From: Escherichia coli
GTDB taxonomy: Bacteria > Pseudomonadota > Gammaproteobacteria > Enterobacterales > Enterobacteriaceae
DNA length: 64,000 nucleotides
Reading direction: 5' to 3' (one strand)
Assembly: GCF_002854065.1 (NCBI RefSeq)
Contig: NZ_CP024151.1
This document shows positions 10,530 through 64,000 of the stretch, piece by piece. The first letter of the stretch is position 1, and each line of letters opens with the position of its first letter. The notes under the pieces were generated by a model. It was not told the origin of the DNA. It ran no database searches and saw nothing but the letters and a program-made list of their open reading frames with translations. The translations under genes were made by a program, and so were the position numbers.

Positions 10530-11478
10530 GCAGACCTCACGAGTTAATGGATTAACGAGTGGGGTCTTCGCATTTCTGGTACCTGCGTCTTGCCTGAACC
10601 AGAAAGGCTCAGACACCCGCCGCGATAATACCACATTCCCTGTTGCTGGCTATTACCCCCATTTGCCTGTTTTTGTTACAAAAACGCCGGGAGCGGGGGA
10701 AAACTTACTTTTTCCCGTTTCCGGGGGGGACAACTGAGCATTGCGAACGCGTCAGCTACGATGTTCCGGTGATTGCTGATCAGCCCCTGTTGTATTCATA
10801 AACTAATTAACATTCATTCCGTCTGGTGCATAAATCTGCCCGTGAACATCTGCAGACAATACCGACCATAAAAAAATAAATAATCCCAGTAGAATATATT
10901 TCCTCATATTATTATCCATAACAAATAAATGGCACCTGTACACCTGTATTTCAGGCAATCCTGAATATTGCAGCGCACATTGAATAAGACGTTATTTCGT
11001 GACATTAATCACAAAATATAAAATCGCGACTTAATACGGAAAAAACTCTGTGCTACTCAGAACTGACTGGTCATACTGCCCGACCGGATATTAAAAAAGC
11101 AAATCTCATAAACTCCTTTCAGCCTTCTGACTCCTGGAGTAATGAAGGCTGCTTTTTCGTTACACCCTTCCCCGGCAGCGCCGGTAGCAGTGTTCAGCCC
11201 TTTTTCGGGCAAACTGCTGCCAGTCTGTCCGGGGCGCAACACAGGCAGCCCGTCGCCATCCTTCTGCCGCTTCCATCCAGCGTCCACTGACCTCCAGAAT
11301 AACGGCCCGGCTTCCGGCACGCTGCCAGCGCCAGACCTGACCGTTCCGTGAACTGTTTCTGAATCCATTCATCTTTATCACTCCTCTTTAACCCGTCAGT
11401 ATTATGGTGTTAAATAATCTACTGAATTGGCTTCCTTTCGGGTACGGAAGTTTATTTCCTTTTAAGCCTTATTTCCCT

Positions 11479-41394: not shown

Positions 41395-42081
41395 TTACTT
41401 AACGCTATAAAATTCACGAATTATATTTAATAGCAAATCTATTTTCCCTTTATAGATACATGACACTCTGAATAAATCAAAGTGTTCAAAAAATTCTTTT
41501 ATTTTCCGTTTAACTGGTTTAATTCGATCCTCAGATGCTCTGTCTGTAATACCCAATTCTCTGGCAATTGTTGCATGACCAACACCCAGCATATAAAAAG
41601 AGAAAACAAGCAATGTCCCGGGGGAAAGATCATTCCATATCGTTAATTTATCAGAAGTATTTGTATTACTTCCACTCTGACTTAACGCAAAAAATGGATA
41701 ATCAGGAAACGGATTAATTTGCCATAAAACAACAGATTCGTCATTATAAAAAGAAACATTCTCCATCCTTATCTGATAGATTTCGCCATGAAAATTAAAA
41801 CGACGACAAAATGCAGAGCCATGTCCAAGAGCCTGGCATTCCAATTCAAGTGATGAAAGAAAAATTTCAACCTGCAGACGTATATAACTCTCTCCGGATA
41901 AGGGTTTATCTTCTCTGGAAAAGAGTTCAATAAAAGCCCCATTGGCATAAAGGATTTTCCGGTTTTTGTTACGGACACAAACCGGAACGGGAGAATTTCT
42001 GTAGATATTCTGAACGTTAAGGATGTACTTATTTACAGATTGACTGTTAAGTGGCCTTTCTCTACGATCCAGCGCACACAT
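41395..42081 (-). CDS. traJ: TraJ transcriptional activator of the tra operon
   Basis: Position between traY and traM; start taken at internal ATG ([13 protein letters not shown]...) preceded by GGAGG; 228 aa. Confidence 0.8.
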
Positions 42082-42152
42082 AGGAACCTCCGTTAAGGAT
42101 TCTATGGACAGTCGATGCAGGGAGTTCAGACCTCCCTGCATCGGCGATTTTC
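42072..42152 (+). ncRNA. finP: FinP antisense RNA (approximate bounds)
   Basis: Antisense to traJ leader/RBS; hairpin GATGCAGGGAG-N6-CTCCCTGCATC followed by GCGATTTT on the plus strand. Confidence 0.5.
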
Positions 42153-42271
42153 AGTTTCAATTTTTAACGTGGCATTAACCACGTAATTAATATACTAATT
42201 ATCTGACGTATTGTCATCTTTTTGAATCATAAAAATTCTTATATTTGAACCAACTCAAACTTCATTTTCAT

Positions 42272-42655
42272 TTATTCATCATCATTTTTTGGAAAAAACC
42301 GGTCCATCTCAACAGACACTTTCTCTCTGATATCGTCAACCATACTGGCATATTCAAACTTCGGGTTTCCGGAGACATGAGGACTGAGAGACTCAATACC
42401 TAAAATCTTTGCCACCGTTGACTGTGTTTTTACAACACATTCAAGAAGAAGTTTATTAAACTCTGTCTGGTTAAACGCAGACTCTTTACGCTCCATCTGT
42501 GCATCATATACGCGAAGCCCCAATTCAAGAAGCATTGAAGCAGTTCCTGAAAGGCTTATATCTTTATCTCTTGCTCCCTCCTGACGACGCTTTTCAACAA
42601 TCATGTTAATTTTTTCATGAACCTCATTACTGATATACAGATTTACTCTGGCCAT
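42272..42655 (-). CDS. traM: TraM relaxosome accessory protein
   Basis: 127 aa MARVNLYISNEVHEKINMIVEKRRQEGARDKDISLSG... Confidence 0.95.
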   Translation of the reverse strand: MARVNLYISNEVHEKINMIVEKRRQEGARDKDISLSGTASMLLELGLRVYDAQMERKESAFNQTEFNKLLLECVVKTQSTVAKILGIESLSPHVSGNPKFEYASMVDDIREKVSVEMDRFFPKNDDE

Positions 42656-43069
42656 AAGACAGTACCTTTTATATTCTGAAACAAGTGTTTTATTTCATTT
42701 ACTAATAGTTTGGTCTGAAAAAAGAAGAGCACCCCTAGCAGCGCCCCTAGGGGCATACTATAAAAAAACGCACGGCGCTGCTAGGGGCGGCCCTAATATA
42801 TCCAAATGTTTTTCATAAAATTTGTCAGTACTGACCCTAACAAGGGTCGCCATAGGGTCGCCATAGGGTCGTCAACGCCCCTATTTAATAATGTAAAATA
42901 AATTAAAATACATTATTTAAAACATAAGCTAATGATTCAAAAAGCAAATCAGCAAAAACTTGTTTTTGCGTGGGGTGTGGTGCTTTTGGTGGTGAGAACC
43001 ACCAACCTGTTGAGCCTTTTTGTGGAGTGGGTTAAATTATTTACGGATAAAGTCACCAGAGGTGGGAAA
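42656..43069 (+). other. oriT: oriT; nic site between 42978 and 42979 on the plus (transferred) strand
   Basis: Plus strand carries the F nic sequence TTTGCGTGGGGTGT^GGTGCTTT, inverted repeat GGTGGTGAGAACCACC (42988-43003), and GGGTCGCCATA direct repeats upstream. Confidence 0.85.
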
Positions 43070-43579
43070 ATGAAAAAATGGATGTTAGCCATCTGCCTGA
43101 TGTTTATAAATGAGATCTGTCTGGCCACTGATTGCTTTGATCTTGCAGGCAGGGATTACAAAATAGATCCTGATTTACTGAGAGCAATATCATGGAAAGA
43201 ATCCCGTTACCGGGTTAATGCCATCGGTATTAATCCGGTAACGGGATATGGCAGCGGACTGATGCAGGTAGATTCCCAGCATTTTAACGAACTGGCCCGC
43301 TATGGAATTAAGCCGGAACATCTGACAACAGATCCCTGCATGAACATTTATACCGGTGCTTATTATCTGGCAATAGCCTTTAAAAAATGGGGCGTCTCCT
43401 GGGAGGCCGTTGGTGCATACAATGCCGGATTCAGGAAAACCGAACGCCAGAACCAGAGACGTCTTGCCTACGCATCAGATGTTTACCGGATTTATACCGG
43501 GATAAAAAGCAGTAAAGGTATCCGGCTTCCGGCCACGAAGAAATCACTTCCGGAAATTAACAGCGAGCAGAACAATTAA
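43070..43579 (+). CDS. Lytic transglycosylase Orf169 (gene X / P19 family)
   Basis: 169 aa from [12 protein letters not shown]... with SLT motifs; GAGGTGGG RBS; divergent from traM. Confidence 0.9.
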
Positions 43580-45123: not shown

Positions 45124-45765
45124 GTTTTCAGCCCCCATCATCTGTTGAGTTTCGGGAGCCGCGGTTTTGACGTTTTGCGGGGACCTGCCTTTTGTTCCCT
45201 CCGGTATTCACCATCACCTTTTTGAGAACCTTCGCCGCAAGGGGCATCACTGCCACGGCCGGAAACGACTGTCCGGGGGCAGACCGCAAAAGTTTTTGCC
45301 TGCTTTTGAGCAAAAAGTTTTGCGGGATGTGCATTTCACCCCTGGACTGGCGGAGACGGTTGTGGCTGTCTATGCCCCCGGCGACAGGGGCTTAAACAGG
45401 TGAATGGCACCGGACACAACAACGGGCAGGGACCCGCCGCAACGACGTGAAGCGCGGTTTGCGAAACGGCGTTGCCCCTTACATCCCGGCGGCCTTTTGC
45501 CGGGATGCCGGGAGCGCAGGCCACGGCGCGACAGAGGCGGCGCGACCGGAACGGTCGCTGCAAGCCCGGGGTTTTCACGCATCGGACCGTAGCGACAGCC
45601 CGAAACCGCGCCAGCGGGTTCGGCGGAGACTGGCAGGTGCGCCAGCAGCTGCCTGTCGGAGTCGGGTCTGACGACCGGATGCCGCCAGGCAGCCGGGAGC
45701 CGAAGGTGCGCCCGGCAGACAGGACAACACTGCAGTAGTCAGAATCAGAGCAGGAAGAAAAAGAG
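45124..45765 (-). repeat. GC-rich leading-region repeat, copy 1 (Frpo/ssi-like candidate)
   Basis: ~640 bp nearly identical to 50461-51093 and, over its distal ~390 bp, to 53826-54433. Confidence 0.8.
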
Positions 45766-46024
45766 AATAATCACAGGGAAGGTGATGTGATTTCTGACAG
45801 GCCATAACCAGAGAAGGCGGGGGAAAAGAACGGGCGCCGCAGGCGCGCGTTCATCCCCGTTCCTGAAGGGAAACGACCTTCCTGAAGTCAGGTTGTTCAT
45901 GCCCGTACAACATCAGCAAGGAGAAAGGGGCTACCGGCGAACCAGCAGCCCCTTTATAAAGGCGCTTCAGTAGTCAGACCAGCATCAGTCCTGAAAAGGC
46001 GGGCCTGCGCCCGCCTCCAGGTTG

Positions 46025-46183
46025 CTACTTACCGGATTCGTAAGCCATGAAAGCCGCCACCTCCCTGTGTCCGTCTCTGTAACGAATCTCGCACAGCGAT
46101 TTTCGTGTCAGATAAGTGAATATCAACAGTGTGAGACACACGATCAACACACACCAGACAAGGGAACTTCGTGGTAGTTTCAT
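46025..46183 (-). CDS. hok: Hok-family toxin (Hok/FlmA-like), intact
   Basis: [52 protein letters not shown]; 3' UTR GC-rich fold-back region follows. Confidence 0.85.
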
Positions 46184-46241
46184 GGCCTTCTTCTCCTTGC
46201 GCAAAGCGCGGTAAGAGGCTATCCTGATGTGGACTAGACAT
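46029..46241 (-). CDS. mok: Mok/FlmC-like overlapping reading frame
   Basis: 70-codon ORF overlapping hok in the +1 frame. Confidence 0.6.
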
Positions 46242-46462
46242 AGGGATGCCTCGTGGTGGTTAATGAAAATTAACTTACTACGGGGCTATCTTCTTTCTGT
46301 CACACAACACGGCAACAAACCACCTTCACGTCATGAGGCAGAAAGCCTCAAGCGCCGGGCACATCATAGCCCATATACCTGCACGCTGACCACACTCACT
46401 TTCCCTGAAAATAATCCGCTCATTCAGACCGTTCACGGGAAATCCGTGTGATTGTTGCCGCA

Positions 46463-47667: not shown

Positions 47668-49626
47668 TCAGGCGGCATCAGCCAGGTTATCGGTGCGTTC
47701 AGTGGCATCCGTCTGTGGGCGTGGTGCACACATCCAGCCAGGCACCCAGCGGTTGTCTTTCATATGGTGCTCTGCATGTTCAGCCGCATCGCCTTTCTTC
47801 ATCTTCTCCGCGTCCCGTGCGGCACCGGATAGTCCTGCCTCATTCAGGGCTGCGATAATCTGCGGCTTTTTCAGGTGTCCGAAAAAGTTTGCTTTCGTCG
47901 GCTGCCACCAGTCGCGCATGTGAAAGCCGATGGCGCTCTCCAGCGTGTCCAGCGGACTGCGTGACGTGTGACCATACTCACGGGTCTGGACACCGTGGAT
48001 ACTGCACGCGGTGCAGAAACTGAGCAGTGATAACAGCACCTCCTGACTGAGTGACAGGAACGTCGTCATATCCCGTGCCCATCCATCCGGCAGCAGGGCG
48101 GCAAGACGGGCTTTTTCTGCCATCATCGTCATGAATGCGGCACCTTCCTTCCCTGACGGCGCATCGCTGGTCAGCGAATAATGCTCACATTCCAGGCGGA
48201 TTCTGGCGGGATTGCTGTAAGCTCCGCTGCCAAATACATTCAGACAGAGTGTCCATGCCAGAAGTGCCAGGGATTTGTCCGGCTGCTGCATCAGTGCTGC
48301 CTGGACTGCCAGCGTGCGCTCTGAGGACATTTTCGTCAGCAGTGGCAGACTGATTTCCTCCACGGAGGCTTTCTCCTGCACCTGTTCCGTGTGGTCAGCG
48401 TCGTCAGCCACATCATCCTCACTGCGTAACTGCACACCACGCTGGACACATACGTTTCCATAACGCCAGGACACCACCACGCCACTTCCGGCACGCATCT
48501 CCGGCGTCCACGCCCTGACCTTCGCCATGCAGTCAATCAGCTTCATTTCTGCTTCCAGCAGGTCGGATTCCTCACACTGGTTTTCCAGCGCATCGTAACG
48601 TGCCATCAGTTTGTTCAGGCGTTCTTCTTCTGCCTCCGTCAGCACCGCTTCCGGCTCCGGCAGACTGCGGTATGTTCCGGCATCCTCACGGCACTCACCA
48701 ACGGCCTCCATGCGTCCGGCACACCATCCCCAGCCCTCGGCTTCCCGAAGGTGTTCAGCAACAGCCTGGAGTTTTTCCAGCAGGGCAGCATCGAGCGCAA
48801 CACAGTCCACATAGCCACCCTCGTCGTCGCTGAACAAATCGGTGCGCAGTTCATCTGGCGAGAAGGCATCAGCCCCCACAAAGCGGAATTTAGTGTTCCC
48901 CGCCACCGCCACTTCACTTTCGGTCACCAGACGACGAATGGTCTGTACTTCCGGTTTTCCGCCCCATCCCGACTGACAGGCAGCTTCAAACACCTGCACC
49001 TGACGCGCGGTGTCGTTCTCCAGCGCCAGCGCCTGACAGTGCTCTGTGGTGATGCGGTCTTCTGCCAGCGCATCGAGGATGACAGGCGCAAGGTCTGCCA
49101 GTTTCAGCATTCGCTGAACGTGGCGGGGTGAATAGCCCAGCAAATCACCGATTTGTGCAGGCGTTTTGCCTTCCTGCGCCATTGCACGGAATCCGGCAAT
49201 CTGTTCGGCAGGGTGCATATCCCGACGATGACCGTTTTCAGTCATTGATGCGGCAGTCGCCAGTTCCTGCGGAATAACCTTCACGCGGACAGGCCAGTCA
49301 GCCGGAAGGATGTTGCGCTCTGCCAGCATGTTGAGTGCTGCCAGTCGGCGACCGCCTGCGGCGACACCGTAACGGTCACCTGGCAGGGCATGAACAACCA
49401 GATTCTGCAGCAGGCCGACGCCCTTAATGGACTCTGCCAGTTCGCTGACAGACTCCGCAGAATACGGCACCGTGCGCACATTCAGCGGTGACTTAATCAG
49501 CGAGGCCAGCGGCACGCTCACTTCAGCCGTCTCCGCCAGCAGGGCCGACAGGACTGTTTCCTGCGTTTTTGCAGGTTTACGGCTGGATTTACGCTCCGTT
49601 TTTACCTTAGACTCTGTAACTGACAT
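47668..49626 (-). CDS. ParB-like nuclease domain protein (652 aa leading-region protein)
   Basis: N-terminal ParB/Srx-like segment LVVHALPGDRYGVAAGGRRLAALNML; start at internal ATG preceded by AAGGAG. Confidence 0.8.
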   Translation of the reverse strand: MSVTESKVKTERKSSRKPAKTQETVLSALLAETAEVSVPLASLIKSPLNVRTVPYSAESVSELAESIKGVGLLQNLVVHALPGDRYGVAAGGRRLAALNMLAERNILPADWPVRVKVIPQELATAASMTENGHRRDMHPAEQIAGFRAMAQEGKTPAQIGDLLGYSPRHVQRMLKLADLAPVILDALAEDRITTEHCQALALENDTARQVQVFEAACQSGWGGKPEVQTIRRLVTESEVAVAGNTKFRFVGADAFSPDELRTDLFSDDEGGYVDCVALDAALLEKLQAVAEHLREAEGWGWCAGRMEAVGECREDAGTYRSLPEPEAVLTEAEEERLNKLMARYDALENQCEESDLLEAEMKLIDCMAKVRAWTPEMRAGSGVVVSWRYGNVCVQRGVQLRSEDDVADDADHTEQVQEKASVEEISLPLLTKMSSERTLAVQAALMQQPDKSLALLAWTLCLNVFGSGAYSNPARIRLECEHYSLTSDAPSGKEGAAFMTMMAEKARLAALLPDGWARDMTTFLSLSQEVLLSLLSFCTACSIHGVQTREYGHTSRSPLDTLESAIGFHMRDWWQPTKANFFGHLKKPQIIAALNEAGLSGAARDAEKMKKGDAAEHAEHHMKDNRWVPGWMCAPRPQTDATERTDNLADAA

Positions 49627-50460: not shown

Positions 50461-51093
50461 TTTTCAGCCCCCATCATCTTTTGAGTTTCGGGAGCCGCGG
50501 TTTTGACGTTTTGCGGGGACCTGCCTTTTGTTCCCTCCGGTATTCACCATCACCTTTTTGAGAACCTTCGCCGCAAGGGGCATCACTGCCACGGACGGAA
50601 ACGACTGTCCGGGGGCAGACCGCAAAAGTTTTTGCCTGCTTTTGGGCAAAAAGTTTTGCGGGATGTACATTTCACCCCTGGACTGGCGGAGACGGTTGTG
50701 GCTGTCTTTGCCCCCGGCGACAGGGGCTTAAACAGGTGAATGGCACCGGACAGAACAACGGGCAGGGACCCGCCGCAACGACGTGAAGCGCGGTTTGCGA
50801 AACGGCGTTGCCCCTTACATCCCGGCGGTCTTTTGCCGGGATGCCAGGAGCGCAGGCCACGGCGCGACAGAGGCGGCGCGACCGGAACGGTCGCTGCAAG
50901 CCAGGGGTTTTCACGCATCGGACCGTAGCGACAGCCCGAAACCGCGCCAGCGGGTTCGGCGGAGACTGGCAGGTGCGCCAGCAGCTGCCTGTCGGAGTCG
51001 GGCCTGACGACCGGATGCCGCCAGGCAGCCGGGAGCCGAAGGTGCGCCCGGCAGACAGGACAACACTGCAGTAGTCAGAATCAGAGCAGCAGG
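50461..51093 (-). repeat. GC-rich leading-region repeat, copy 2 (immediately upstream of ssb)
   Basis: Nearly identical to copy 1 with a few substitutions. Confidence 0.8.
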
Positions 51094-51104
51094 AAAAAGA
51101 AGAA

Positions 51105-51152
51105 CAGTAGCAGTAGCAGTAGCAGTAGCAGTAGCAGTAGCAGTAGCAGTAG
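51105..51152. repeat. Hexanucleotide tandem repeat (CAGTAG)8
   Basis: Eight perfect CAGTAG units adjacent to repeat copy 2. Confidence 0.9.
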
Positions 51153-53354: not shown

Positions 53355-53585
53355 TCAGTTAAAAGCGCGTTTCAGTTCGAGTGTGCGGAGCACCTGCCCG
53401 AAGGCCGTGTTTTTCATGGCGGGGATGTGTACACCACGCCCCCGGTGAAAACTCCGGGCAATGTGTCGCCCGAAGGCTTTCAGCACGGGGTCAATTTCCG
53501 GCGCGGGGATGTCTTCGCGTCTGAAACGGGGATGACGGCGGGGCTTTACAGCCGCTGCGGAAGGTGAAACAATACTTACTGTCAT
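53355..53585 (-). CDS. Hypothetical small basic protein (76 aa)
   Basis: ATG with AAGGAG RBS, downstream of repeat copy 3. Confidence 0.45.
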   Translation of the reverse strand: MTVSIVSPSAAAVKPRRHPRFRREDIPAPEIDPVLKAFGRHIARSFHRGRGVHIPAMKNTAFGQVLRTLELKRAFN

Positions 53586-53825
53586 AAATGAAACTCCTTA
53601 TGACAAATTGGTTAACAATGCCGTCAAAATTGGTTGTGCAATTCTTACGGCGTGGATTAAGCAGGTCCCTGACCTGCTTTTTTCATATCTGCGTCTGACG
53701 TTCTACGGTGTTTTCCTCCTTCTGTTCCTGCGTTCTCATTACCTGCCAGCCGGATGACTGACAGAACAAATAAATGCATATTGCCGGAGCCTGAAATAAA
53801 TCCTGATTTTTAAAGAACATCACCC

Positions 53826-54433
53826 GTTGAGTTTCGGGAGCCGCGGTTTTGACGTTTCGCGGGAACCTGCTGCTGTATTCCCTGTGGTATGAACTTCACC
53901 CGTTTGAGAACCTTCGCCGCAAGGGGCATCACTGCCACGGCCTGACGCACCTGTCCTGGGCAGAACGCAAAATTTTTTACCGGGTTTTGGGTAAAAAATT
54001 TTGTGGGCTGTTCATTTACCCTGGACAGTCAGTGCGGCAGGTTGTGGCTGTATCAGCCCCCGGCGACAGGGACTCATACGGGTGTGTGGCACCGGCAGGC
54101 AATGAGCAGGGACCCGCCGCAACGACGGAGAGCGCGTGCGCGAAACGGCGTTGCCCCTTACATCCCGGCGGCCTTTTGCCGGGATGCCGGGAGCGCAGGC
54201 CACGGCGCGACAAGGGTGGCGCGACCGGAACGGTCGCTGCAAGCCCGGGGTTTTCACGCATCGGACCGTAGCGACAGCCCGAAACCGCGCCAGCGGGTTC
54301 GGCGGAGACTGGCGGGTGCGCCAGCAGCTGCCTGTCGGAGTCGGGCCTGACGACCGGATGCCGCCAGGCAGCCGGGAGCCGAAGGTGCGCCCGGCAGACA
54401 GAACAACACTGCAGTAGTCAGAATCAGAGCAGC
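53826..54433 (-). repeat. GC-rich leading-region repeat, copy 3 (diverged in proximal third)
   Basis: Distal ~390 bp closely match copies 1 and 2; first ~220 bp diverge after the shared GTTGAGTTTCGGGAGCCGCGGTTTTGACGTTT. Confidence 0.75.
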
Positions 54434-54622
54434 AGATAAAGGAACAACAACATCAGGAACAGTTCCATAACATAAGAAAGAAACACTCCTGAGTCAGACA
54501 CATCACAGACGGGAAGGGTAACGGGCGACGCGCCAGCGTGGCCCGCTTCCCTTCCGGCAGGCGTCAGCCTGCCAGGGGTTTTCGCGCGGACTGACAGGCG
54601 GCCTCCACCGCCTGCCCCTGTA

Positions 54623-54814
54623 TCACCTGTTTCTGCTACCCTGTAAGATGTAGTGACCGCCCAGGAAAACCGCCTGCTGATTCGCCACAAAATCGCAGAT
54701 TTCATCAACAATCTGCGCGGTGGTGAGCGGTTTCTGCCCCATTTCACGACGCCGCGCATTAATCACGGCCCTGTAATTACGCAGAATTTCGCGGGTTTCT
54801 GTGCTGATATTCAT
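54623..54814 (-). CDS. Hypothetical small protein (63 aa)
   Basis: ATG overlapping the stop of the upstream 144 aa gene (ATGA), suggesting coupling. Confidence 0.45.
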   Translation of the reverse strand: MNISTETREILRNYRAVINARRREMGQKPLTTAQIVDEICDFVANQQAVFLGGHYILQGSRNR

Positions 54815-55245
54815 GACATCGTCTCCCCGTCCAGCGCCTGTAACACAACGTCCATTGCTTCGCGTTCCTCCCTGACGAATGCGTCACCGTCGCCCCCGTT
54901 CTCACTCCCGACGGCATACAGGCGCTTCATTTCACTGCCTGCCAGCGCCATCACTTTTTCCAGCATCACCGCCGGGACTGTCACCTGACGGCTGGCGCGC
55001 TTTTCTTCCATCAGTTCATGAACAACGCCGTGAACAACGCCGTGAACAACGCTGACATCCGCACCATATTCAAAGGCATCGTCCAGCCGCTGCATGACGG
55101 TTTCCAGCTCATCGTCTGTCAGACTCCAGTCCTGGGCTATGTGACGCACATCCCCACGGGTCAGCACCACGGCAAAAACGCATTCACTGTCCGGCACGTC
55201 TGTATCCAGCACTTCGCGGATAATTTCTTTAACAGTACAGTACAT
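54811..55245 (-). CDS. Conserved leading-region protein, paralog B (144 aa, DUF1380-like)
   Basis: AAGGAGA RBS; shares N-terminal MY-T-E--RE, S/LTD-E--TV and RQVTVPA segments with the 56961-57395 ORF. Confidence 0.55.
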   Translation of the reverse strand: MYCTVKEIIREVLDTDVPDSECVFAVVLTRGDVRHIAQDWSLTDDELETVMQRLDDAFEYGADVSVVHGVVHGVVHELMEEKRASRQVTVPAVMLEKVMALAGSEMKRLYAVGSENGGDGDAFVREEREAMDVVLQALDGETMS

Positions 55246-55291
55246 GTTCTCGTCTCCTTTACAGGGGCGGCATTGCCGCCCCGTCCGTTAA

Positions 55292-55717
55292 TCAGTCCAG
55301 AGCCGCGTAAATCGCGTTGCATTCGGGGTGAAATTCGATGTGACGCCACAACTGCGCATCGCGCATCCGGTAAAGCTGGGTCAGTCCTGCATCCCCGCTG
55401 TCGTGGTACAGCCACAACTGGCGGTTAATCACAAGGGAGGTCAGGATGATGCCTGCGGCATCAGCACTCACGGTACGGTCAAACCAGTTTGCACCGTTCA
55501 CCATGTGGAAACGGTCGCCATCCGGCATCATGTAACCGCCACCGTCCGGCAGGCGGATGAAGTGCCAGAAGCCTCCCTGATATTCCGGCATCATTTTTTG
55601 CGCCAGCGCGTACACATACGCCTCGGCATACAGAAAATCGTTGCCAAACAGATACGGCAGAAAGGAGAGACGGTCGCACTCTTCAACATTCAGAGTGACA
55701 GGTTTCGCATATTGCAT
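55292..55717 (-). CDS. klcA: Antirestriction protein, KlcA/ArdB family
   Basis: 141 aa; [18 protein letters not shown] and NAIYAALD segments parallel KlcA of IncP; GGAGGA RBS. Confidence 0.85.
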
Positions 55718-56133
55718 GATGTTTTCCTCCGTTGTTCACATATTCCGCGACACCGGGCGGTGCCGTGCCTCCATAAAAGCCGGGCGAACAGGCGGGGATG
55801 CAGGGGCGCAAGGGAAGCCGCAGCCTGACGCACACGGCTGACGGGAGTTGCAGGGTGAGACCGCGAAATCTGAGCGGGTGAACGACCGGAAAATCACGGC
55901 AGACGGGAAGGAGGGACCGGGTGACCGCAGCGGCGAAGCGTACCCTTGCATCAACGCCAGCCCGGCTAAGATGGAGGCACGGCACAGCCCGCACACGACG
56001 CTGAGGCCACATAACTGAAAAACCACAAGGCCATGCCCTGCATGGCCGGGTAAAGCGGAGCCGGCGGCGACTTCCTTTGTGCTCTGTCCGGGGACCGGCA
56101 GGAAAAAGGCGGGGATTTACCCCGCCAGTGTCA

Positions 56134-56910
56134 TCATTTCCGGATTTTTGCCAGGGCATCCGCCATGCTGCGGATTTCGGTCCGGGCTTCCCGGACCACC
56201 TCCCGCAGAACACCACGGTCAAACCAGCGGCGGGGCGGTTCATCCGGTATACGCAGCACATCGCAGGCCAGCCCACTGGACAGGATATGCTCAATACACT
56301 CACTGACCAGATACATTTCCACCGACGAAAAACGTGCTCCCCGGTTCACGATGGCATCGAGCACCACGGGCAGGTTTTCGTCATCTTCATCGAGCCAGCA
56401 GGGGTGATCGCTTTCCTTCACGACCAGGCGAAAGCGGCGCGTCTGGCGGGTCAGCAACGTCTGACCGGTGGTGGTCAGCGCCGCACGGATACGCCGCGCA
56501 TCTTCTGCCACCTGGTAACAGATGCTTCGTACCGCATCGTGCACCGCATCAAGAACAGCCTTGATTTCGTCTTCGGTCAGCCATTCTCCGGCATACGGGA
56601 AAGACACCTGCGTTCCGTCTGCCGGAAGTACCGGCAGCGACTGCCACTGACTGCCGGACAGTACCAGTTCCGCCCCGGTTCCGGTCAGTCTCTGAATGGC
56701 GGAGGCCAGGAGCGGCGGCAGTACGCCGCCGTGACGGTTGATAAGTAACGTCGCCAGCCGGGGCGCATCCAGCCGCACGTAAATGCTGATCCAGCCCGGA
56801 TAGTTCGGATTTCGCTGGTCAACATCCGTCTCTTCCGGCCAGTCCTGCGCCAGCAGCAGGTTACGGGCGTGACGACAAATCAGTGCGTTCAGCGTGCTGT
56901 TTTCGTTCAT
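56134..56910 (-). CDS. Hypothetical leading-region protein (258 aa from ATG 56910; track ORF extends to 56961)
   Basis: Internal [11 protein letters not shown] preceded by AGGGAGA; no recognisable motif. Confidence 0.5.
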
Positions 56911-56960
56911 GATTAAGCGTTCTCCCTGTATCGCCGCCCGCAGGGCAGGCGGCGATAACA

Positions 56961-57395
56961 TCAGTTGTTTTCGTGTGTGTTGTTTTTCAGCAGGGTGCGG
57001 GCCTGATTAACCACCGCCTGACGGCGGGTAACGCATTCCGGGACGGCGAGGCCGTTATCACGGGCGGCCCACTCACGTTTCCACAGTGCCTGTTCAGCGG
57101 TCTGAATCAGGGACGCCAGCAGTTCAGCAGGGACGGTCACCTGGCGGTTTTCGCTCACGTTGCTGATAATCTCCATCACCGCGGCGGAAGAAATACCGGA
57201 TTCAGTCCGCTGGTCTTCCGGGATGTCCTCCATGCGCGCCAGGACGGTCCTGATTTCATGATCGGTCAGAGAAATTTCCATACCGTCAGCCAGTGCCTGA
57301 ATCTCTTCCGGGGACCAGATAACCAGCATCAGCGGCGCGTCTCCCGGATACTTTGCTGCCAGCTCCCGGCATAGCGTTTCGCATGTTCCGTACAT
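56961..57395 (-). CDS. Conserved leading-region protein, paralog A (144 aa, DUF1380-like)
   Basis: AAGGAGA RBS; paralogous to the 54811-55245 ORF. Confidence 0.55.
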
Positions 57396-57408
57396 TCTCG
57401 TCTCCTTC

Positions 57409-57630
57409 TCAATCTTTGAAGCAGGAATCCAGTTCCAGAATTTCGGTATACGCCTCCATAAACAGGCGATTGGCGCGATACAGCGTCTGGCGTGTCAGGC
57501 GTTCAACAAGCACATCGGAATCAAAGCGACAGCGATGCTCCATATCGTTCAGCCTAGCCCGAAGGTCACACATGGTGTTGGCCACCTCCGCCACGTCGGC
57601 GCGAAGTTTTTCGTGTCCGGCATAGTTCAT
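57409..57630 (-). CDS. Hypothetical small protein (73 aa)
   Basis: ATG directly after the methyltransferase stop codon. Confidence 0.4.
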   Translation of the reverse strand: MNYAGHEKLRADVAEVANTMCDLRARLNDMEHRCRFDSDVLVERLTRQTLYRANRLFMEAYTEILELDSCFKD

Positions 57631-58314
57631 TTACGCAGCCTCCGGTTCAAACCAGTTATCATTCGCGGCCCCCTGCTGCATGGCCCGTTGCACGGCGGCC
57701 AGTCGTTGCTGTCCGGCACGGTGATACTGTTCAAGCAGCTCGATACCGATATACCGGCGTCCGGACTGGAGGGCGGCCACGCAGGTTGAGCCGCTGCCTG
57801 CAAACGGGTCCAGCACAATCGCGTTCGGATGTGTGAAGCTCTCAATCAGTGGTTGCAGGCTGGTAACGGGCTTTTCCGTCGGGTGATGGCGGTTGCCCGA
57901 ATATTTCCAGCCCAGCACGTCGGGTAATGGCTTCGGAGGCAGCGCCGGACGGCCTTTTGCCAGGATATAGGCGCATTCGTGACGGTACGCGACATACGCA
58001 GATTTGGATGTGTAGCTTTTGGTGAACACAAGGTGCCCTACAACGCTGAATCCGGCGCGTTTCCAGGCTGCCATAAAGCGGTCAATACGGTTCCAGCCAT
58101 AGAAACTCACCATCAGCGCATCTTTTTTTAGTACGCGGTACATCTCATTACTGGCAGGTTGCAGCCAGTCATCGTTAACGTCACCGGCAATGGTGCGCCC
58201 GGAACGGTCACGAAAACCAACGAGATATGGTGGGTCGGTTAAGATGAAATCAATGGCGTTATCAGGAATCGTGGCCATAACACGCACGCAGTCACCCAGG
58301 ATAAAACGGGACAT
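57631..58314 (-). CDS. DNA methyltransferase, beta-class N6-adenine/N4-cytosine type (DPPY motif)
   Basis: 227 aa with FILTDPPY near the N-terminus and DPFAGSGSTCVAA SAM-binding motif near the C-terminus; GAGGAGGA RBS. Confidence 0.8.
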   Translation of the reverse strand: MSRFILGDCVRVMATIPDNAIDFILTDPPYLVGFRDRSGRTIAGDVNDDWLQPASNEMYRVLKKDALMVSFYGWNRIDRFMAAWKRAGFSVVGHLVFTKSYTSKSAYVAYRHECAYILAKGRPALPPKPLPDVLGWKYSGNRHHPTEKPVTSLQPLIESFTHPNAIVLDPFAGSGSTCVAALQSGRRYIGIELLEQYHRAGQQRLAAVQRAMQQGAANDNWFEPEAA

Positions 58315-58699
58315 AACAGCACTCCTCCTCTTACAGAGGGCACCGGGAGGGCGCCCCTGTGGCGCCCGTTCTCCGCTGCCTGTGGGCTGTTCACCGCGTC
58401 CGGTAACGGGTCAGGCCGACCGTGGAATACCGCAGCCGTCGTCTTTCTGACGGCGAGGATATGCCGCGAAAGCGGCTTGAAGGGCATTCATCAGAAAAGG
58501 GCGACAGGCTGGCGTACACTGTCACCGACGCCAGCCAGGAGCGGTAAAAGCGCCCGTCCCGTGCCCGGCCGGACACGGGACACTGACCACAGGCAGCGTT
58601 CCTGCCGCGCCGCGTCAGCCGGCGCAGTAAAAAGAGGAGCACGGCGACATCCTTTGTCGGAAAAGAAACGGGCGGTTGCCCGCCCGTCTCCGTCATACT

Positions 58700-59626
58700 T
58701 CATCCGCCATAATGCGCCACCTTGTCGACTATCCACGCAGGTCCGGTGACTTCCGGCAGCTCATCGTCATCTGTCGGGGAAGACCATTCAAGTTCCCCCC
58801 ACAGCACATCAACGAGCTCTCCACGCTCATACAACTGCCAGCCACAGAAATTGCAGCCTTGTTCGGCGTACCAGTGCTCCAGCGTGCAGCTGAAACGGCG
58901 GCTTAATTCTGCAACAACGTCGCTTTCCGGCTGACACCACGGCGTGTCGAAATCCACCTGAATGAAGTTTTCTCCCTGACTGCTGATATTCAGGTCATAC
59001 CCACAAGGCCACTTCACGCCATACCGTTCGGTATACCAGTGATATGCAGAAGGAACACCGTTCAGAACACCACCGTTAAAGCCATTCACTTCAACATCCA
59101 GGCGGGTCGGCAGAACCGTCAGCAGGTCAAACGGCATGGTTTTTTCCGGCAGCACGTTGTCACACAGACGGTTCCACCACACCGATACATCCTCGTTACC
59201 CCAGATGTCACACCAGTCACCTCTTTTTGCGGTGAAATGCACAGTGATGATTTCCCTGACATCATCCGGTAATCCTTCCCAGCGACGCTGTCCAGTACCG
59301 CTCTGCAGCCAGAGTTTATGCAGCATCAGGCAGTTTTGCTCATCCAGCAGTACACCGTCCTGCAGGTATGTCAGCCAGCGGGTGAACGCGATATTCTCCG
59401 GCGATACAACGCCACGCCCGGCAGCCGTCAGTCCGGGGCATGGTTCAAACCGCACATCTTCAGTGGTCTGCAGAAGTCCGGCACTTCCGGCCAGAAACAG
59501 CTGAATACCTTCATTTGTGGCGCGGCGATAAAGCGGTGTGACTGCACCGCTGGCCAGTCGTTTAATCTCAGCAATCTGTGCCGGTTCACCAGAAAAATGC
59601 ATACGATTTGAGCACCAGTTTGGCAT
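58700..59626 (-). CDS. Hypothetical Cys/Trp-rich leading-region protein (308 aa from ATG 59626; track ORF extends to 59671)
   Basis: Internal ATG MPNWCSNRMHF preceded by GAGAGGAGAA; multiple C-x-x-C/W-C motifs. Confidence 0.55.
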   Translation of the reverse strand: MPNWCSNRMHFSGEPAQIAEIKRLASGAVTPLYRRATNEGIQLFLAGSAGLLQTTEDVRFEPCPGLTAAGRGVVSPENIAFTRWLTYLQDGVLLDEQNCLMLHKLWLQSGTGQRRWEGLPDDVREIITVHFTAKRGDWCDIWGNEDVSVWWNRLCDNVLPEKTMPFDLLTVLPTRLDVEVNGFNGGVLNGVPSAYHWYTERYGVKWPCGYDLNISSQGENFIQVDFDTPWCQPESDVVAELSRRFSCTLEHWYAEQGCNFCGWQLYERGELVDVLWGELEWSSPTDDDELPEVTGPAWIVDKVAHYGG

Positions 59627-59980
59627 GGGAATTCTCCTCTCACATGCGGCCTCTATCAGGCCGTGCCGCACCTGTAACCGGGCGACCGCATACGAATGCA
59701 GGTGCGGCCCCGAAGCCGCAGCGCGTGGAGGAGGAACGACGAAACGTGACCGGGTGAGGAGGCCGGCGACAGCGACACACTTGCATCGGATGCAGCCCGG
59801 TTAACGTGCCGGCACGGCCTGGGTAACCAGGTATTTTATTCACAGAACCGTGCGCAAAATGCTGTGGATAAGCTGGACACAGCAGTCCACAGCAGGCATA
59901 CAGCCACACCCTCAGAGAATTGAGCGTTTTTTAGTCACAATAATGACATTTGACTGTGTGTGGATTCAGTTATTAGAATG

Positions 59981-59996
59981 CTGTATATACATACAG
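59981..59996 (+). promoter_or_regulatory. LexA box (SOS operator) upstream of impC
   Basis: CTGTATATACATACAG fits CTGT-N8-ACAG, ~25 bp upstream of the impC ATG. Confidence 0.7.
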
Positions 59997-60019
59997 CAAT
60001 AGAAAAGGGAGATGAGAAC

Positions 60020-60268
60020 ATGATCCGCATTGAAATTCTTTTCGACCGCCAGAGCACAAAAAACCTCAAATCAGGCACACTTCAGGCGCTACAGAATGAA
60101 ATCGAACAACGTCTGAAACCACACTCCCCGGAAATCTGGCTGCGTATAGACCAGGGCAGCGCCCCGTCTGTATCTGTCACAGGAGCCCGCAACGACAAGG
60201 ATAAAGAACGTATCATGTCTCTGCTGGAAGAAATCTGGCAGGACGACAGCTGGCTGCCTGCAGCATGA
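60020..60268 (+). CDS. impC: ImpC (DinI-like SOS modulator)
   Basis: MIRIEILFDRQSTKNLKSGTLQALQNEIEQRLKPHSPEIWLRIDQGSAP...EIWQDDSWLPAA, DinI-family pattern. Confidence 0.85.
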   Translation: MIRIEILFDRQSTKNLKSGTLQALQNEIEQRLKPHSPEIWLRIDQGSAPSVSVTGARNDKDKERIMSLLEEIWQDDSWLPAA

Positions 60269-60702
60269 GTACCGTTTATCACCGTCCGGCTGACCCTTCA
60301 GGCGATGACAGTTACGTGCGACCGTTGTTTGCCGATCGTTGCCAGGCCGGTTTTCCTTCGCCTGCCACTGATTATGCTGAGCAGGAACTGGATCTGAACA
60401 GCTATTGCATCAGCAGACCTGCAGCCACCTTCTTTCTGCGCGCCAGCGGTGAATCGATGAACCAGGCTGGCGTGCAGAATGGTGATCTGCTGGTAGTGGA
60501 CAGGGCCGAGAAACCACAACACGGGGACATCGTTATCGCTGAGATCGACGGTGAGTTCACCGTCAAACGACTGCTGTTGCGCCCACGCCCGGCACTGGAG
60601 CCGGTTTCAGACAGCCCGGAATTTCGCACACTGTATCCGGAAAACATCTGTATTTTTGGTGTTGTCACTCACGTGATACACAGGACGCGGGAGTTACGCT
60701 GA
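60265..60702 (+). CDS. impA: ImpA (UmuD/MucA-like, S24 peptidase fold)
   Basis: 145 aa LexA/UmuD-like; start overlaps impC stop (ATGA). Confidence 0.9.
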   Translation: MSTVYHRPADPSGDDSYVRPLFADRCQAGFPSPATDYAEQELDLNSYCISRPAATFFLRASGESMNQAGVQNGDLLVVDRAEKPQHGDIVIAEIDGEFTVKRLLLRPRPALEPVSDSPEFRTLYPENICIFGVVTHVIHRTRELR

Positions 60703-61972
60703 TGTTTGCACTGGCTGATATCAACAGTTTCTACGCCTCATGTGAAAAAGTTTTCCGCCCGGACCTTCGCAACGAACCGGTCATCGTACTCAGCAATAAC
60801 GATGGCTGTGTGATCGCGCGCAGCCGGAGGCAAAAGCCCTTGGCATCAGAATGGGGCAGCCCTGGTTTCAGGTGAGACAGATGCGCCTGGAGAAGAAAAT
60901 ACATGTATTTTCCAGCAATTATGCGCTGTACCACAGCATGAGCCAACGGGTCATGGCTGTTCTGGAGTCGCTTTCTCCCGCAGTTGAGCCCTACTCAATT
61001 GATGAAATGTTCATTGATTTGCGGGGGATAAATCATTGCATCTCTCCGGAGGTTTTTGGTCATCAGCTCAGGGAACAGGTAAAGAGCTGGACAGGACTCA
61101 CCATGGGGGTGGGCATTGCGCCTACAAAAACGCTGGCTAAAAGTGCACAGTGGGCAACAAAGCAATGGCCACAGTTTTCCGGTGTGGTCGCGCTGGAGGC
61201 AGAAAACCGTAATCGGATCTTGAAGCTACTGGGGCTGCAGCCAGTTGGTGAGGTCTGGGGAGTAGGACGCAGACTGACGGAAAAGCTGAATGCGCTGGGT
61301 ATTAACACAGCACTGCAGCTGGCGCAGGCTAACACGGCATTCATCCGGAAAAACTTCAGCGTCATTCTTGAGCGTACGGTACGCGAACTCAACGGCGAGT
61401 CCTGCATATCCCTGGAAGAAGCACCACCGGCAAAACAGCAGATTGTCTGTAGTCGCAGTTTTGGTGAACGAATCACAGACAAAGATGCCATGCACCAGGC
61501 TGTTGTTCAGTATGCAGAGCGGGCCGCAGAGAAACTACGTGGGGAGCGTCAGTATTGCCGGCAGGTGACGACATTTGTACGGACATCCCCCTTTGCAGTA
61601 AAAGAACCCTGTTACAGCAATGCCGCTGTGGAAAAGCTTCCATTACCCACACAGGACAGCCGGGACATTATTGCCGCAGCATGCAGAGCGTTAAACCATG
61701 TCTGGCGTGAAGGGTACCGCTATATGAAGGCAGGAGTCATGCTGGCTGATTTCACACCATCGGGTATAGCGCAGCCGGGATTATTTGATGAGATCCAGCC
61801 CCGTAAAAACAGCGAAAAGTTAATGAAAACACTCGATGAACTGAACCAGTCTGGAAAAGGGAAAGTGTGGTTTGCGGGGCGAGGAACCGCCCCTGAATGG
61901 CAAATGAAACGGGAAATGCTCTCGCCTTCGTATACAACACAATGGACTGAGATCCCCATTGCTTCATTCTGA
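60702..61972 (+). pseudogene. impB: ImpB (UmuC/MucB-like Y-family polymerase), apparent -1 nt frameshift near 60822-60826
   Basis: N-terminal 40 codons (MFALADINSFYASCEKVFRPDL...VIARS) in frame 0 then stop at ~60878; remainder (EAKALGIRMGQPWFQ... 373 aa) continues in another frame. Confidence 0.8.
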
Positions 61973-61976
61973 TATA

Positions 61977-62405
61977 TCAGAATAATTTTTGCATTTTAAG
62001 GCGCACATCATTCATTGCCTCCTGCACCGAATCAGTAGCAGAAGGAGGCATTTTTTCAGCAGATTGCAAAGCACCGAGTTCAGTCAACACAGCTCTGATA
62101 TCGGCCTGAGAAGGCTTCCATCCTGTCGTCTGACTGAGTAAGGTTACAACCTGATCTGCTGAAAACTCCTCGCTCAAAATGGCAGTCAGCAATACAGGCA
62201 GGCGAGGATCAAGTTGGTGTAACGCCATTCCAGAAATAAATGCATTCCGGAACAGCTCACCACGCTCAGAACGCGGAACGGACTCTATCGCTTCCAAAGC
62301 TTGAAAGTCTGCAGCTTTTTCCGGATGCAGATAAAGTGTGAATTTTTTCCTTTTCCGTTCATCGTCCACAATATTACTCCTCTTTGAAAGCCGCGATAGC
62401 TTCAA
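61977..62405 (-). CDS. parR: ParR/StbB centromere-binding adaptor (type II partition)
   Basis: ESVPRSERGELFRNAFISGMALHQLDPRLPVLLTAILSEEF parallels R1 ParR; directly downstream of parM; start uncertain. Confidence 0.75.
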   Translation of the reverse strand: MKLSRLSKRSNIVDDERKRKKFTLYLHPEKAADFQALEAIESVPRSERGELFRNAFISGMALHQLDPRLPVLLTAILSEEFSADQVVTLLSQTTGWKPSQADIRAVLTELGALQSAEKMPPSATDSVQEAMNDVRLKMQKLF

Positions 62406-63345
62406 CCAGTGCTGTCTGTGGCGACTCCATCATCACTACTTTTTGCCCAAGATGGTGCCATGCCGTTTTTATCGAATCATAGATCAACGGGGCCCCACCA
62501 CCGACAACATAAACACGATTCACATGATGAAAATCACCGAGCTCATTGACTACTTGCTCCCCCAGACTGGCAATAGCCCCCTCAATGGTATTAAGGACCA
62601 GATCAGTTTTTGTTTCGTCATTTATAACCTGCCGAACAAAGTCCGGGTCATTACGACGTTTAATCAATTCATCTGCAACGAGGAAACTGGTATCACTGGA
62701 TGCCATGCGCAATGCACTCATTGCAGCTTTCGTAACTGAAGACACACCAATGCCAGAATTACCATGAATGGCACTTACAGAGTCAAATTGACCAACGATA
62801 ACACCAACATCAAGCGTAGTGCCGCCAATATCAACTACCAGCGATTTTTCGAACTGACCAACTTTATCCATGACCAGACGAGAAAACACAGCTGGCAATG
62901 ATTCAGGCATCACATCAACGTGTTCAATGGTGAAAACATCGCCTTTATTAAGACGAATCGGCCTCATTAAATTCTCAATTTTACGCTGAATGTTGAGTTC
63001 ATTTTTTTGACACTCTTTCGTGTAGAACTCACTGATAGGCAAAGTCACAGTCAATGATACAGGCTGAGGCGCTAATCCACTATTCAGTAAAGCGTGATGC
63101 ACAGCTAACAGGTTAACATCCGTATATTGATACTCAATATGAGTCGTAAGAATAGATTGGTTGCTAACTTCATCATACGTGTATTTTTTACCATCCAGTT
63201 CATAGTTAAATGTCTGGCGAATCCCTAACCCGTCAACCTTCCATCCATGACGAAATGAGTTTTGCGACAACGACTTACAGATTTTCCCATTGTCATTCCA
63301 TGCCAACTTGATTGTTGTTGAACCATCATCGCAGTATACGTTCAT
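62374..63345 (-). CDS. parM: ParM/StbA actin-like segregation ATPase
   Basis: 323 aa MNVYCDDGSTTIKLAW... with DIGGTT and VVGGGA motifs. Confidence 0.9.
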   Translation of the reverse strand: MNVYCDDGSTTIKLAWNDNGKICKSLSQNSFRHGWKVDGLGIRQTFNYELDGKKYTYDEVSNQSILTTHIEYQYTDVNLLAVHHALLNSGLAPQPVSLTVTLPISEFYTKECQKNELNIQRKIENLMRPIRLNKGDVFTIEHVDVMPESLPAVFSRLVMDKVGQFEKSLVVDIGGTTLDVGVIVGQFDSVSAIHGNSGIGVSSVTKAAMSALRMASSDTSFLVADELIKRRNDPDFVRQVINDETKTDLVLNTIEGAIASLGEQVVNELGDFHHVNRVYVVGGGAPLIYDSIKTAWHHLGQKVVMMESPQTALVEAIAAFKEE

Positions 63346-63349
63346 CTAT

Positions 63350-63570
63350 AGCCCCTTAAATACTCAATCTGAGTAAATCACTGTTTCTGGTTGCAAGGTA
63401 ATACTCAATTTGAGCACTATCATAGTTATGAAATCACAAAACACAAGTAATATTTATTACATCATATGACATACTTCATATTTCATACTTCATAAATATG
63501 AATGCATGTTGACACATCAGGTTACCGTGTCAAAATATCATCATACTTCACACATCACATTTATGAGGTT
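63350..63570. other. Candidate partition site / promoter region with short direct repeats
   Basis: AATACTCAAT(C/T)TGAG twice and CATACTTCATA twice, between divergent parM and the ParA-like gene. Confidence 0.3.
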
Positions 63571-63572
63571 GC

Positions 63573-64000
63573 AATGATTACTGTAGTTGGTGGGAACAAA
63601 GGTGGTTCAGGGAAAACTACCATTGCATCAAACCTGGCTATTGCTCTCGCAAATAAAGGAAGGGAAGTCTGCCTGTTAAACGGAGATCTACAACGAACAG
63701 CCGCAAAACATCATGCGGAACGAGAAGCTGCAGGACTGTTACCAGCAATAACCCTTGTTGAGAAATTTGATAACCTGACACAAACACTACAGGCTCTGAA
63801 TGAAAAGTTCGATGATGTAATAGTGGATGTCGCAGGAAGAAACTCAAAGGAATTCATAACGAGTGGAGTTGTCGCACATCAAATAATTGCGCCACTACAG
63901 TGTTCTCAACCAGATCTGGATACTCTTACAGAACTAGAACAACAGATAGACGCAATGCGTAACCTTAACCCGGAACTTAAGGTTTATTGTTTACAAAGTA
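63573..64000 (+). CDS. ParA/MinD-family P-loop ATPase, N-terminal part (runs past window end)
   Basis: ATG at 63573 after GAGG; deviant Walker A GGNKGGSGKTT; no in-frame stop before the window end. Confidence 0.65.

Follow-up and report, generated by a model that had tools for sequence, protein, structure and literature searches.

The end of the window (the whole 64,000-nucleotide stretch of Escherichia coli DNA that was analysed) carries two well-known plasmid modules lying tail to tail: an imp operon with a broken polymerase gene and a double par locus of the pB171 type. We put the probability of this reading at roughly 93%. Over the 29.3 kb compared, the window and the E. coli IncF plasmid pDETEC81 are 100% identical. 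The gene order of the window runs from oriT, near 42.7–42.9 kb, through psiB, ssb, an antirestriction gene and methylase genes, with the imp and par region sitting past the distal end of this F-type leading region. A previous reading of the letters alone (here called the sequence-only reading) had placed two segregation systems at the end of the leading region and considered the arrangement notable. Both systems are present, beyond the distal end, but what they form is the known pB171 double par locus, an arrangement that has already been described and is ordinary rather than novel.

The double par locus of the E. coli EPEC plasmid pB171, made up of par1 (parMRC) and par2 (parABC), was reportedly described by Ebersbach and Gerdes in 2001 and by Ringgaard et al. 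in 2007. The locus in the window is, judged by its sequence, this published locus, with a type II system (par1), a type Ib system (par2) and the parC1 region common to both. The link to pB171 was made via the 2JD3 ParR sequence, the contigs encoding it and secondary citations. PDB entry 2JD3 is the crystallised pB171 ParR (PMC3074162), and the ParR of the window is identical to it at 125 of 130 residues (96%). Exact pB171 ParR is encoded on six contigs, all of which have the order recombinase, ParB (91 aa), ParA (214 aa), 228-bp spacer, ParM (323 aa), ParR (130 aa), imp operon and leading-region genes; gene order, orientation and protein sizes are the same here as in pB171. Compared with the proteins encoded beside exact pB171 ParR, ParM is identical at 321–322 of 323 residues, ParA at 213 of 214 and ParB at 90 of 91. 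Also as in pB171-type loci, the spacer is 228 bp long, two 10-bp boxes lie beside parM, and parB is followed by another repeat array. The differences appear to be at the level of alleles only: five substitutions in ParR (5/130), 3–5% of bases in parC1 (which is 95–97% identical to the spacer of the loci encoding exact pB171 ParR), and three 14-bp CTTATGAAATCACA-type units in parC2 where pB171-ParR-type loci have two.

The type II ParMR system that the sequence-only reading had recognised on the opposite strand is borne out by profile matches. On the minus strand, parM (stbA, 62374–63345) encodes a 323-aa actin-like ATPase (Pfam StbA_N, E 1.6e-64; ParM C-terminal domain, E 4e-44) that matches R1 ParM structures over residues 2–295 (E 3e-76). 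It is followed by the small parR gene (stbB, 61977–62369, minus strand), which has a GTG start and encodes a 130-aa ribbon-helix-helix centromere-binding adaptor (Pfam Plasmid_stab_B, E 6e-30). A 142-aa ParR reading frame with a TTG start is an upstream extension, and the 130-aa GTG start is preferred on the basis of identical records and the 2JD3 alignment. The stbA qPCR primers used for pUTI89 match the parM of the window exactly. The scan gave no consensus-level promoter for parMR; a weak candidate read by eye on the minus strand (63446–63419, TTGTGT-16-TATGAT) may serve. As in parMRC (stbAB) of R1/R100, the prototype of type II, an actin-like ParM is joined by a small ParR encoded downstream, with repeats upstream of parM. 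Unlike that prototype, the centromere region is common to a second system, 2JD3 is the only solved ParR with a detectable sequence match to the ParR here, and there are two 10-bp boxes as against the 11-bp repeats bound by R1 ParR (PMC9426499).

Between the divergent par operons lies parC1 (63346–63573), a putative centromere and operator region of 228 bp; the corresponding shared region of pB171 is reportedly about 200 bp (Ringgaard 2007). It contains two unrelated sets of direct repeats. Two copies of AATACTCAAT lie beside parM, at 63359–63368 (repeat family D4; extended copy AATACTCAATCTGAG) and, 41 bp from the first, at 63400–63409; both are unchanged in pB171-ParR-type loci and would presumably be the ParR boxes. 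The second set consists of 11 WTCAYA hexamers (a motif defined in this analysis, which may differ from the published ParB box) in three clusters at 63419–63438, 63461–63502 and 63540–63559, several of them at a spacing of 7 bp. No other part of the 64 kb is as dense in this motif (11 in the 228 bp, as against a window-wide 0.22 per 100 bp), and the hexamers are candidate ParB boxes. Short direct repeats between the two systems had been anticipated as a possible centromere; the repeats are there, and by analogy they probably have that role. No site for the IHF consensus WATCAANNNNTTR was found in parC1.

The divergent ParA-type gene with a deviant Walker A motif was also read correctly from the letters. 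It starts at 63574 on the plus strand, and the window holds the first 142 of its 214 codons (63574–64000); the start of the protein carries MITVVGGNKGGSGKTT, that is KGGSGKT. A promoter match (TTGACA, 16-nt spacer, CAAAAT; 63509–63536, plus strand, 10/12 positions, with TG before the -10 hexamer) precedes it. The parts beyond position 64,000 were read from the pDETEC81 record and an identical locus (L001), and this extension supplied the partner that had been looked for there. ParA runs to its full 214 aa at window-equivalent 64218 and overlaps parB (64212–64487), which encodes a 91-aa ribbon-helix-helix protein (RHH_1, 21.8 bits against a cut-off of 20.5). Downstream of parB in L001 lies the second array, parC2 (64488–64638), a 151-bp stretch holding 10 WTCAYA boxes together with three 14-bp units that have TATGAAATCACA in common with parC1, and then a tyrosine recombinase gene. 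A small deviant-Walker-A ParA with no N-terminal DNA-binding domain, a small RHH centromere-binding partner and arrays of very short repeats are also found in the type Ib systems parFGH of TP228 and delta/omega of pSM19035. Sequence similarity to these is only distant (TP228 ParF, 4dzz, residues 8–210, E 3e-7), and here the repeat arrays flank the operon on both sides.

Could the 214-aa ATPase instead be a MipZ/MinD-like division positioning protein, leaving only one true partition system? The PGAP/RefSeq label, "division plane positioning ATPase MipZ", says so, and the MipZ family gives the best Pfam score (E 1.6e-13). That match, however, is confined to the P-loop region (residues 2–52, in a profile of 262 positions), whereas similarity to plasmid ParF/ParA extends over the full length. 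The gene overlaps that of an RHH partner, arrays of one short repeat lie on both flanks, and the protein differs at a single residue from the ParA encoded beside exact pB171 ParR. The literature describes pB171 ParA as an oscillating partition ATPase. Neither full-length similarity to MipZ/MinD nor a chromosomal division context was found, the context being a plasmid par operon, and we regard the MipZ assignment as scarcely credible. It is very improbable, too, that the intergenic repeats are autoregulatory operators only and that the true centromere is to be sought elsewhere, such as in parC2 alone. The layout is indeed operator-like: hexamer clusters flank the parA promoter, and the two ParR boxes separate the start of parM from its likely promoter region. 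Nevertheless, such repeats usually do both jobs in systems of types Ib and II, and the par2 constructs described as functional in the literature contain parC1 as well as parC2. The WTCAYA arrays bracket parA and parB, one lying upstream and one downstream; this agrees with pB171, for which PMC7602700 describes ParB-site arrays on both sides and a regulatory role as well for the upstream one.

A further possibility, which we consider rather unlikely, is that one par system alone works, with the other carried along redundantly or acting chiefly in regulation or incompatibility. Of the four par proteins, ParR has diverged furthest (5/130), as might suit a system of that kind. On the other hand, all four par genes have unbroken reading frames, the ParR boxes are conserved along with both promoter regions, activity is reported for both halves of the pB171 locus (according to secondary citations), and the complete double module, present in 981 PLSDB plasmids, is kept at at least 95% identity in most of them. 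With these alternatives weighed, the pB171-type double par locus remains the preferred reading. A count of 971 plasmids pairing a type I system with RHH ParB and a type II system has been published (PMC13245405).

How would two systems share one region? For this plasmid, gene content, motifs, repeats and the near-identity to pB171-ParR-type loci were observed, and binding, repression and segregation activity are taken from the literature. ParR dimers would assemble on the AATACTCAAT pair next to the start of parM, and actin-like ParM filaments would capture the resulting complexes and drive sister plasmids away from each other (type II); bound ParR would also repress the parMR promoter. ParB would coat the WTCAYA-type arrays in parC1 and parC2 and stimulate nucleoid-bound ParA-ATP, giving an even spacing of plasmids along the nucleoid (type Ib). 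Around the parA promoter, ParB would auto-repress parAB and dampen the adjoining parMR promoter. Repeat binding by ParR and ParB, stabilisation of test plasmids and cross-repression of par1 by ParB are described in PMC9426499 and PMC9800825, and deletion of parB in pUTI89 raised parA 128-fold and stbA 16-fold (PMC9800825).

The pB171-type locus serves as a textbook case of both actin-like and ParA-type segregation, and it ranks with the most common stability modules on F-like plasmids in Enterobacteriaceae. Its presence here has little weight as a discovery. The annotation can be corrected: the RefSeq "MipZ" would become ParA of par2, and the "hypothetical protein" ParB of par2. We know of no report of a common centromere region in the dual systems of R27 and Shigella pINV. 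These plasmids also carry two different partition types on one low-copy replicon (Par1/Par2 in R27, ParAB and StbAB in pINV) but, unlike the locus here, pair type Ia with type II (PMC13245405).

On the other side of par1 lies the imp operon, which corresponds on plasmids to dinI plus umuDC. A promoter match (-35 TTGACT, 18-nt spacer, -10 TAGAAT; 10/12 positions) lies on the plus strand at 59950–59979, and we infer its function from its place directly before a strong LexA (SOS) box, CTGTATATACATACAG, at 59981–59996. The box, which had been noticed ahead of impC, is indeed near consensus, ends 24 bp from the impC ATG at 60020 and is the sole CTGT-N8-ACAG in the 64 kb. Because about 0.84 occurrences of that pattern are expected by chance in 64 kb, weight is placed on the position of the box and on its near-perfect (TA)n spacer. 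The looser CTG-N10-CAG pattern has 49 matches in the scan and does not discriminate, so it is the strict box and the match to a published site that count: the 16-nt core of CTGTATATACATACAG is identical to that of the impCAB LexA box of the IncF plasmid pTF2, TACTGTATATACATACAGCA, which has a heterology index of 1.60 (PMC12211044). A weaker second site, CTGTGTGTGGATTCAG, overlaps the -35 region (59954–59969) and is the reverse complement of the core of the -48 site of pTF2, AACTGAATCCACACACAGTC, with a heterology index of 13.49 (PMC12211044). A LexA box thus overlaps the promoter, as in imp/umu-type operons. In an SOS-constitutive host carrying pTF2, proteomics found ImpC up 21-fold and ImpA up 9-fold (PMC12211044). 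The shared core supports, by analogy, LexA control of the operon in the window. LexA bound directly after the -10 hexamer and at the weaker site over the -35 would keep the operon off, and RecA-mediated cleavage of LexA in the SOS response would turn it on.

The gene order impC, impA, impB is present, as the sequence-only reading had it, but the operon is not intact. On the plus strand, impC (60020–60268) encodes an 82-aa DinI-like protein (Pfam DinI, E 1.1e-16; also DinI-like in identical records), and impA (60265–60702; source name "Protein ImpA", of Swiss-Prot type) encodes a 145-aa UmuD-like S24 self-cleaving subunit (Pfam Peptidase_S24, E 3e-24) that aligns to E. coli UmuD (8gmt_B) at E 3e-36. 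Its QAGFPSP, ASGESM and FTVKRL segments align with the cleavage-site and Ser/Lys regions of UmuD; from what is known of UmuD and LexA, we take the AG of the first to be the cleavage site and the Ser of the second and Lys of the third to be the dyad. The Y-family polymerase gene impB (60702–61972, plus strand) has a 1-bp deletion that had been missed. Two reading frames (60702–60875 and 60851–61972) divide its IMS, IMS_C and DUF4113 domains between them, with the break after codon 41, where alignment with two intact copies shows a single missing C (CCC to CC at 60824–60825). The span has no annotated CDS in records identical to the window, and it holds no intact UmuC-like Y-family polymerase. 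The impCAB operons of the IncI1 plasmid TP110, the Shigella virulence plasmid and pTF2 have the same LexA box core and the same order of dinI-, umuD- and umuC-like genes with overlapping start and stop codons, but here impB is frameshifted. The operon therefore reads as a decayed member of the family, with impB a pseudogene. Only ImpC and ImpA would be made intact. No pol V-like translesion polymerase would come from this operon, and UV protection or mutagenesis via an ImpA'2-ImpB polymerase is not expected. Ribosomal frameshifting could in principle bypass the deletion.

The imp and parMR operons are convergent, with 4 bp between their stop codons. No convincing terminator was found between impB and parR: an AT-rich palindrome, ATTCTGATATATCAGAAT, covers both stop codons, but its folding is no stronger than that of shuffled sequence (z 0.54) and the terminator scan did not call it. 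SOS transcription from the imp promoter might run antisense into parR and parM, and, if so, would couple DNA damage to reduced expression of par1. In related plasmids, impB is broken by a different 1-bp deletion or by IS insertions, and among the six contigs encoding exact pB171 ParR the imp operon is complete but frameshifted in four and IS-truncated in two. The lesions overall comprise two distinct 1-bp deletions, each in a CCC run, a 5-bp deletion, and insertions of IS66 and IS1. Such repeated independent loss of impB, with the LexA box, impC and impA kept, suggests selection for a polymerase-free function of ImpC and ImpA, for example in modulating RecA. Taken together, read-through into par1 and selection of this kind are unlikely proposals. 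In this plasmid lineage the imp operon in any case has no working polymerase, and the recurrent decay of impB poses a small evolutionary question of its own.

The two divergent partition systems downstream of impCAB appear to be the double par locus of pB171, an E. coli EPEC plasmid, at allele-level divergence. In par1, on the minus strand, ParM matches the R1 ParM structures (E 3e-76). ParR (61977-62369) matches Plasmid_stab_B in Pfam, and its sole solved relative, PDB entry 2JD3 ("StbB protein"), is identical at 125 of 130 residues from the GTG codon onward; 2JD3 is the ParR of pB171 (PMC3074162). The type II ParMR assignment of the sequence-only reading thus holds, as does that of a ParA-type ATPase with a deviant Walker A motif (KGGSGKT, plus strand from 63574). 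This ATPase had been proposed to have a partner beyond position 64000, and in records identical to the window ParA is 214 aa long and overlaps by 7 bp a 91-aa ORF that scores above the Pfam RHH_1 threshold. ParA and TP228 ParF align end to end.

The link to pB171 was made through contigs encoding the exact 2JD3 ParR sequence, for which the index of the collection searched lists about 6000 blocks. The gene order was the same in all six listed places: recombinase, ParB (91 aa), ParA (214), a 228-bp spacer, ParM (323), ParR (130) and the imp operon, the last being full but frameshifted in four contigs and cut short by an IS in the other two. Relative to the locus described here, these contigs are identical at 321-322 of 323 positions in ParM, 213 of 214 in ParA and 90 of 91 in ParB, and parC1, the spacer between the par operons, is 95-97% identical. 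It is this shared order and near-identity that points to the pB171 locus.

Direct repeats between the two systems had been suggested as a possible centromere, and the spacer (63346-63573) does contain them. AATACTCAAT occurs twice beside the parM start, at 63359 and 63400 (41 bp apart), and both boxes are identical in the loci with the exact pB171 ParR. The remaining spacer holds 11 hexamers of the form WTCAYA (our own definition of a candidate ParB box) in three clusters, several at 7-bp spacing, on both sides of a promoter match (TTGACA-16-TGnCAAAAT, 63509-63536). WTCAYA averages 0.22 per 100 bp over the window and is nowhere else in it so densely clustered. Ten more hexamers lie in the 151 bp after parB (parC2), together with three 14-bp CTTATGAAATCACA-type units just outside the window (10800-10847 in the identical plasmid locus L001, equivalent to window 64499-64546); TATGAAATCACA is common to these units and parC1. 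The loci with the exact pB171 ParR have two such units rather than three, a one-unit difference in the downstream centromere. The layout matches that of pB171, whose parAB is described in secondary sources as having an array on either side (PMC7602700).

The par2 system of pB171 works by ParA gradients or oscillation, which space the plasmids out along the nucleoid (PMC4270457; PMC11067062). Published primers for stbA of pUTI89 match the window exactly; deletion of parB from that plasmid raised parA 128-fold and stbA 16-fold (PMC9800825), as would be expected if ParB represses both its own operon and par1. RefSeq/PGAP labels in identical records (ParA as "division plane positioning ATPase MipZ", ParB as "hypothetical protein") are uninformative or misleading for an experimentally studied partition pair.

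The LexA box proposed upstream of impC is confirmed: CTGTATATACATACAG (59981-59996) is the sole CTGT-N8-ACAG in the 64 kb by pattern search, directly follows a promoter match (TTGACT-18-TAGAAT, 59950-59979) and lies 24 bp before the impC ATG (60020). A weaker second site, CTGTGTGTGGATTCAG (59954-59969), overlaps the -35 region. Their counterparts on the IncF plasmid pTF2 are the two LexA sites given for its impCAB promoter, TACTGTATATACATACAGCA (heterology index 1.60) and AACTGAATCCACACACAGTC (13.49); in an SOS-constitutive host carrying pTF2, ImpC rose 21-fold and ImpA 9-fold (PMC12211044). Because of these matches and that induction, SOS control of the imp operon has good support, through its homology with a promoter that has been tested. 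In Pfam, ImpC matches DinI, ImpA matches Peptidase_S24 (with the cleavage-site and Ser/Lys motifs present on alignment with E. coli UmuD), and the third gene matches the impB/mucB/samB Y-family polymerases.

That third gene is broken into two ORF pieces (60702-60875 and 60851-61972), one C being missing from a CCC run at 60824-60825 (impB nt 123) on alignment to two intact copies. Could this be a read error? The polymerase CDS is absent from 7 plasmid records at 99.9-100% identity and listed in records at 99.8%. The records without it come from different laboratories and hosts, which rules out a read error and makes the deletion a mutation of the lineage. Since the catalytic IMS domain is divided between an N-terminal 57-aa fragment and a 373-aa remainder, a working ImpB polymerase would not be expected. 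The loci with the exact pB171 ParR have another 1-bp deletion, at nt 945 and likewise within a CCC run, and some are damaged further (compared at locus coordinates 6398-7668 in plasmid loci L007-L012), by a 5-bp deletion (L009, L011) or by IS66 or IS1 truncation (L008, L010). Independent inactivation of impB has occurred several times. Evenly spaced sampling of PLSDB by tblastn gave 27 close matches to ImpB, about 5 of them split or truncated. The LexA box, impC and impA are kept in five of the seven broken-impB loci examined and lost from two IS-disrupted contigs. Over-expression of impCAB is reported to be toxic, and impB to be under less constraint than impC or impA (PMC10286972).

At the junction with par1 (61970-61979), 4 bp separate the impB and parR stop codons, both inside an 18-nt AT-rich palindrome, ATTCTGATATATCAGAAT. 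With z 0.54 this palindrome makes no convincing terminator, so read-through from one convergent operon into the other may occur.

The 2663-bp segment from parR to parC2 was found in 981 PLSDB records at 80% coverage or more, the majority at least 95% identical, in Escherichia, Salmonella, Klebsiella and Shigella; the entire imp-plus-par segment was covered to at least 80% in at least 872. An independent 2026 survey counted 971 PLSDB plasmids that pair type-I RHH-ParB with type II systems and termed the combination previously reported (PMC13245405). The original observation is confirmed and its interpretation essentially right; the module is already known and has been characterised by experiment, and the setting here is among its commonest.

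Window segments 35000-59999 and 59700-64000 are each 100% identical to pDETEC81 (NZ_CP116170.1), an IncFIA/FIB/FIC conjugative plasmid of 90 kb from E. coli, and 53700-64000 is 100% identical to L001 (from NZ_CP080082.1); sequence past the window end was taken from these two (pDETEC81 coordinate = window minus 8579). The annotated positions of traM (42272-42655) and the SLT gene (42932-43579) in pDETEC81 place oriT between them. Beyond it, all on the minus strand, are annotated F-type leading-region genes (hok, psiB, a 652-aa ParB/RepB/Spo0J-family gene, ssb, methyltransferases, antirestriction, DUF1380 and DUF1281), and the imp/par feature sits just past these, at the end of the leading region as had been proposed.

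A segment of about 630 bp is present in three direct copies, about 88% identical (45136-45767, 50472-51106 and 53818-54444), which lie between the hok/psiB, ssb and antirestriction gene groups or upstream of them; these may be the single-strand promoters (Frpo/ssi-type) that F-like leading regions carry as repeated segments. The 652-aa gene (47668-49626, minus strand, between psiB and ssb) is a third par-like element, outside the double par locus, and may be the counterpart of "parB_2" of I-complex plasmids, over-expression of which lowers fitness (PMC10286972). Two of the 630-bp copies have Rfam matches nearby: sok (46181-46357) follows the first at a distance of about 400 bp, and AS-pc01 (53580-53682) precedes the third by about 140 bp. 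Regulatory RNAs expected on an IncF plasmid (CopA, sok, AS-pc02, AS-traI, AS-traG and the FinP/traJ 5' UTR) all score above gathering scores, with matches at 9592-9680, 10460-10618, 11080-11263, 15232-15308, 23843-23928 and 42075-42184, a set consistent with an F-like backbone.
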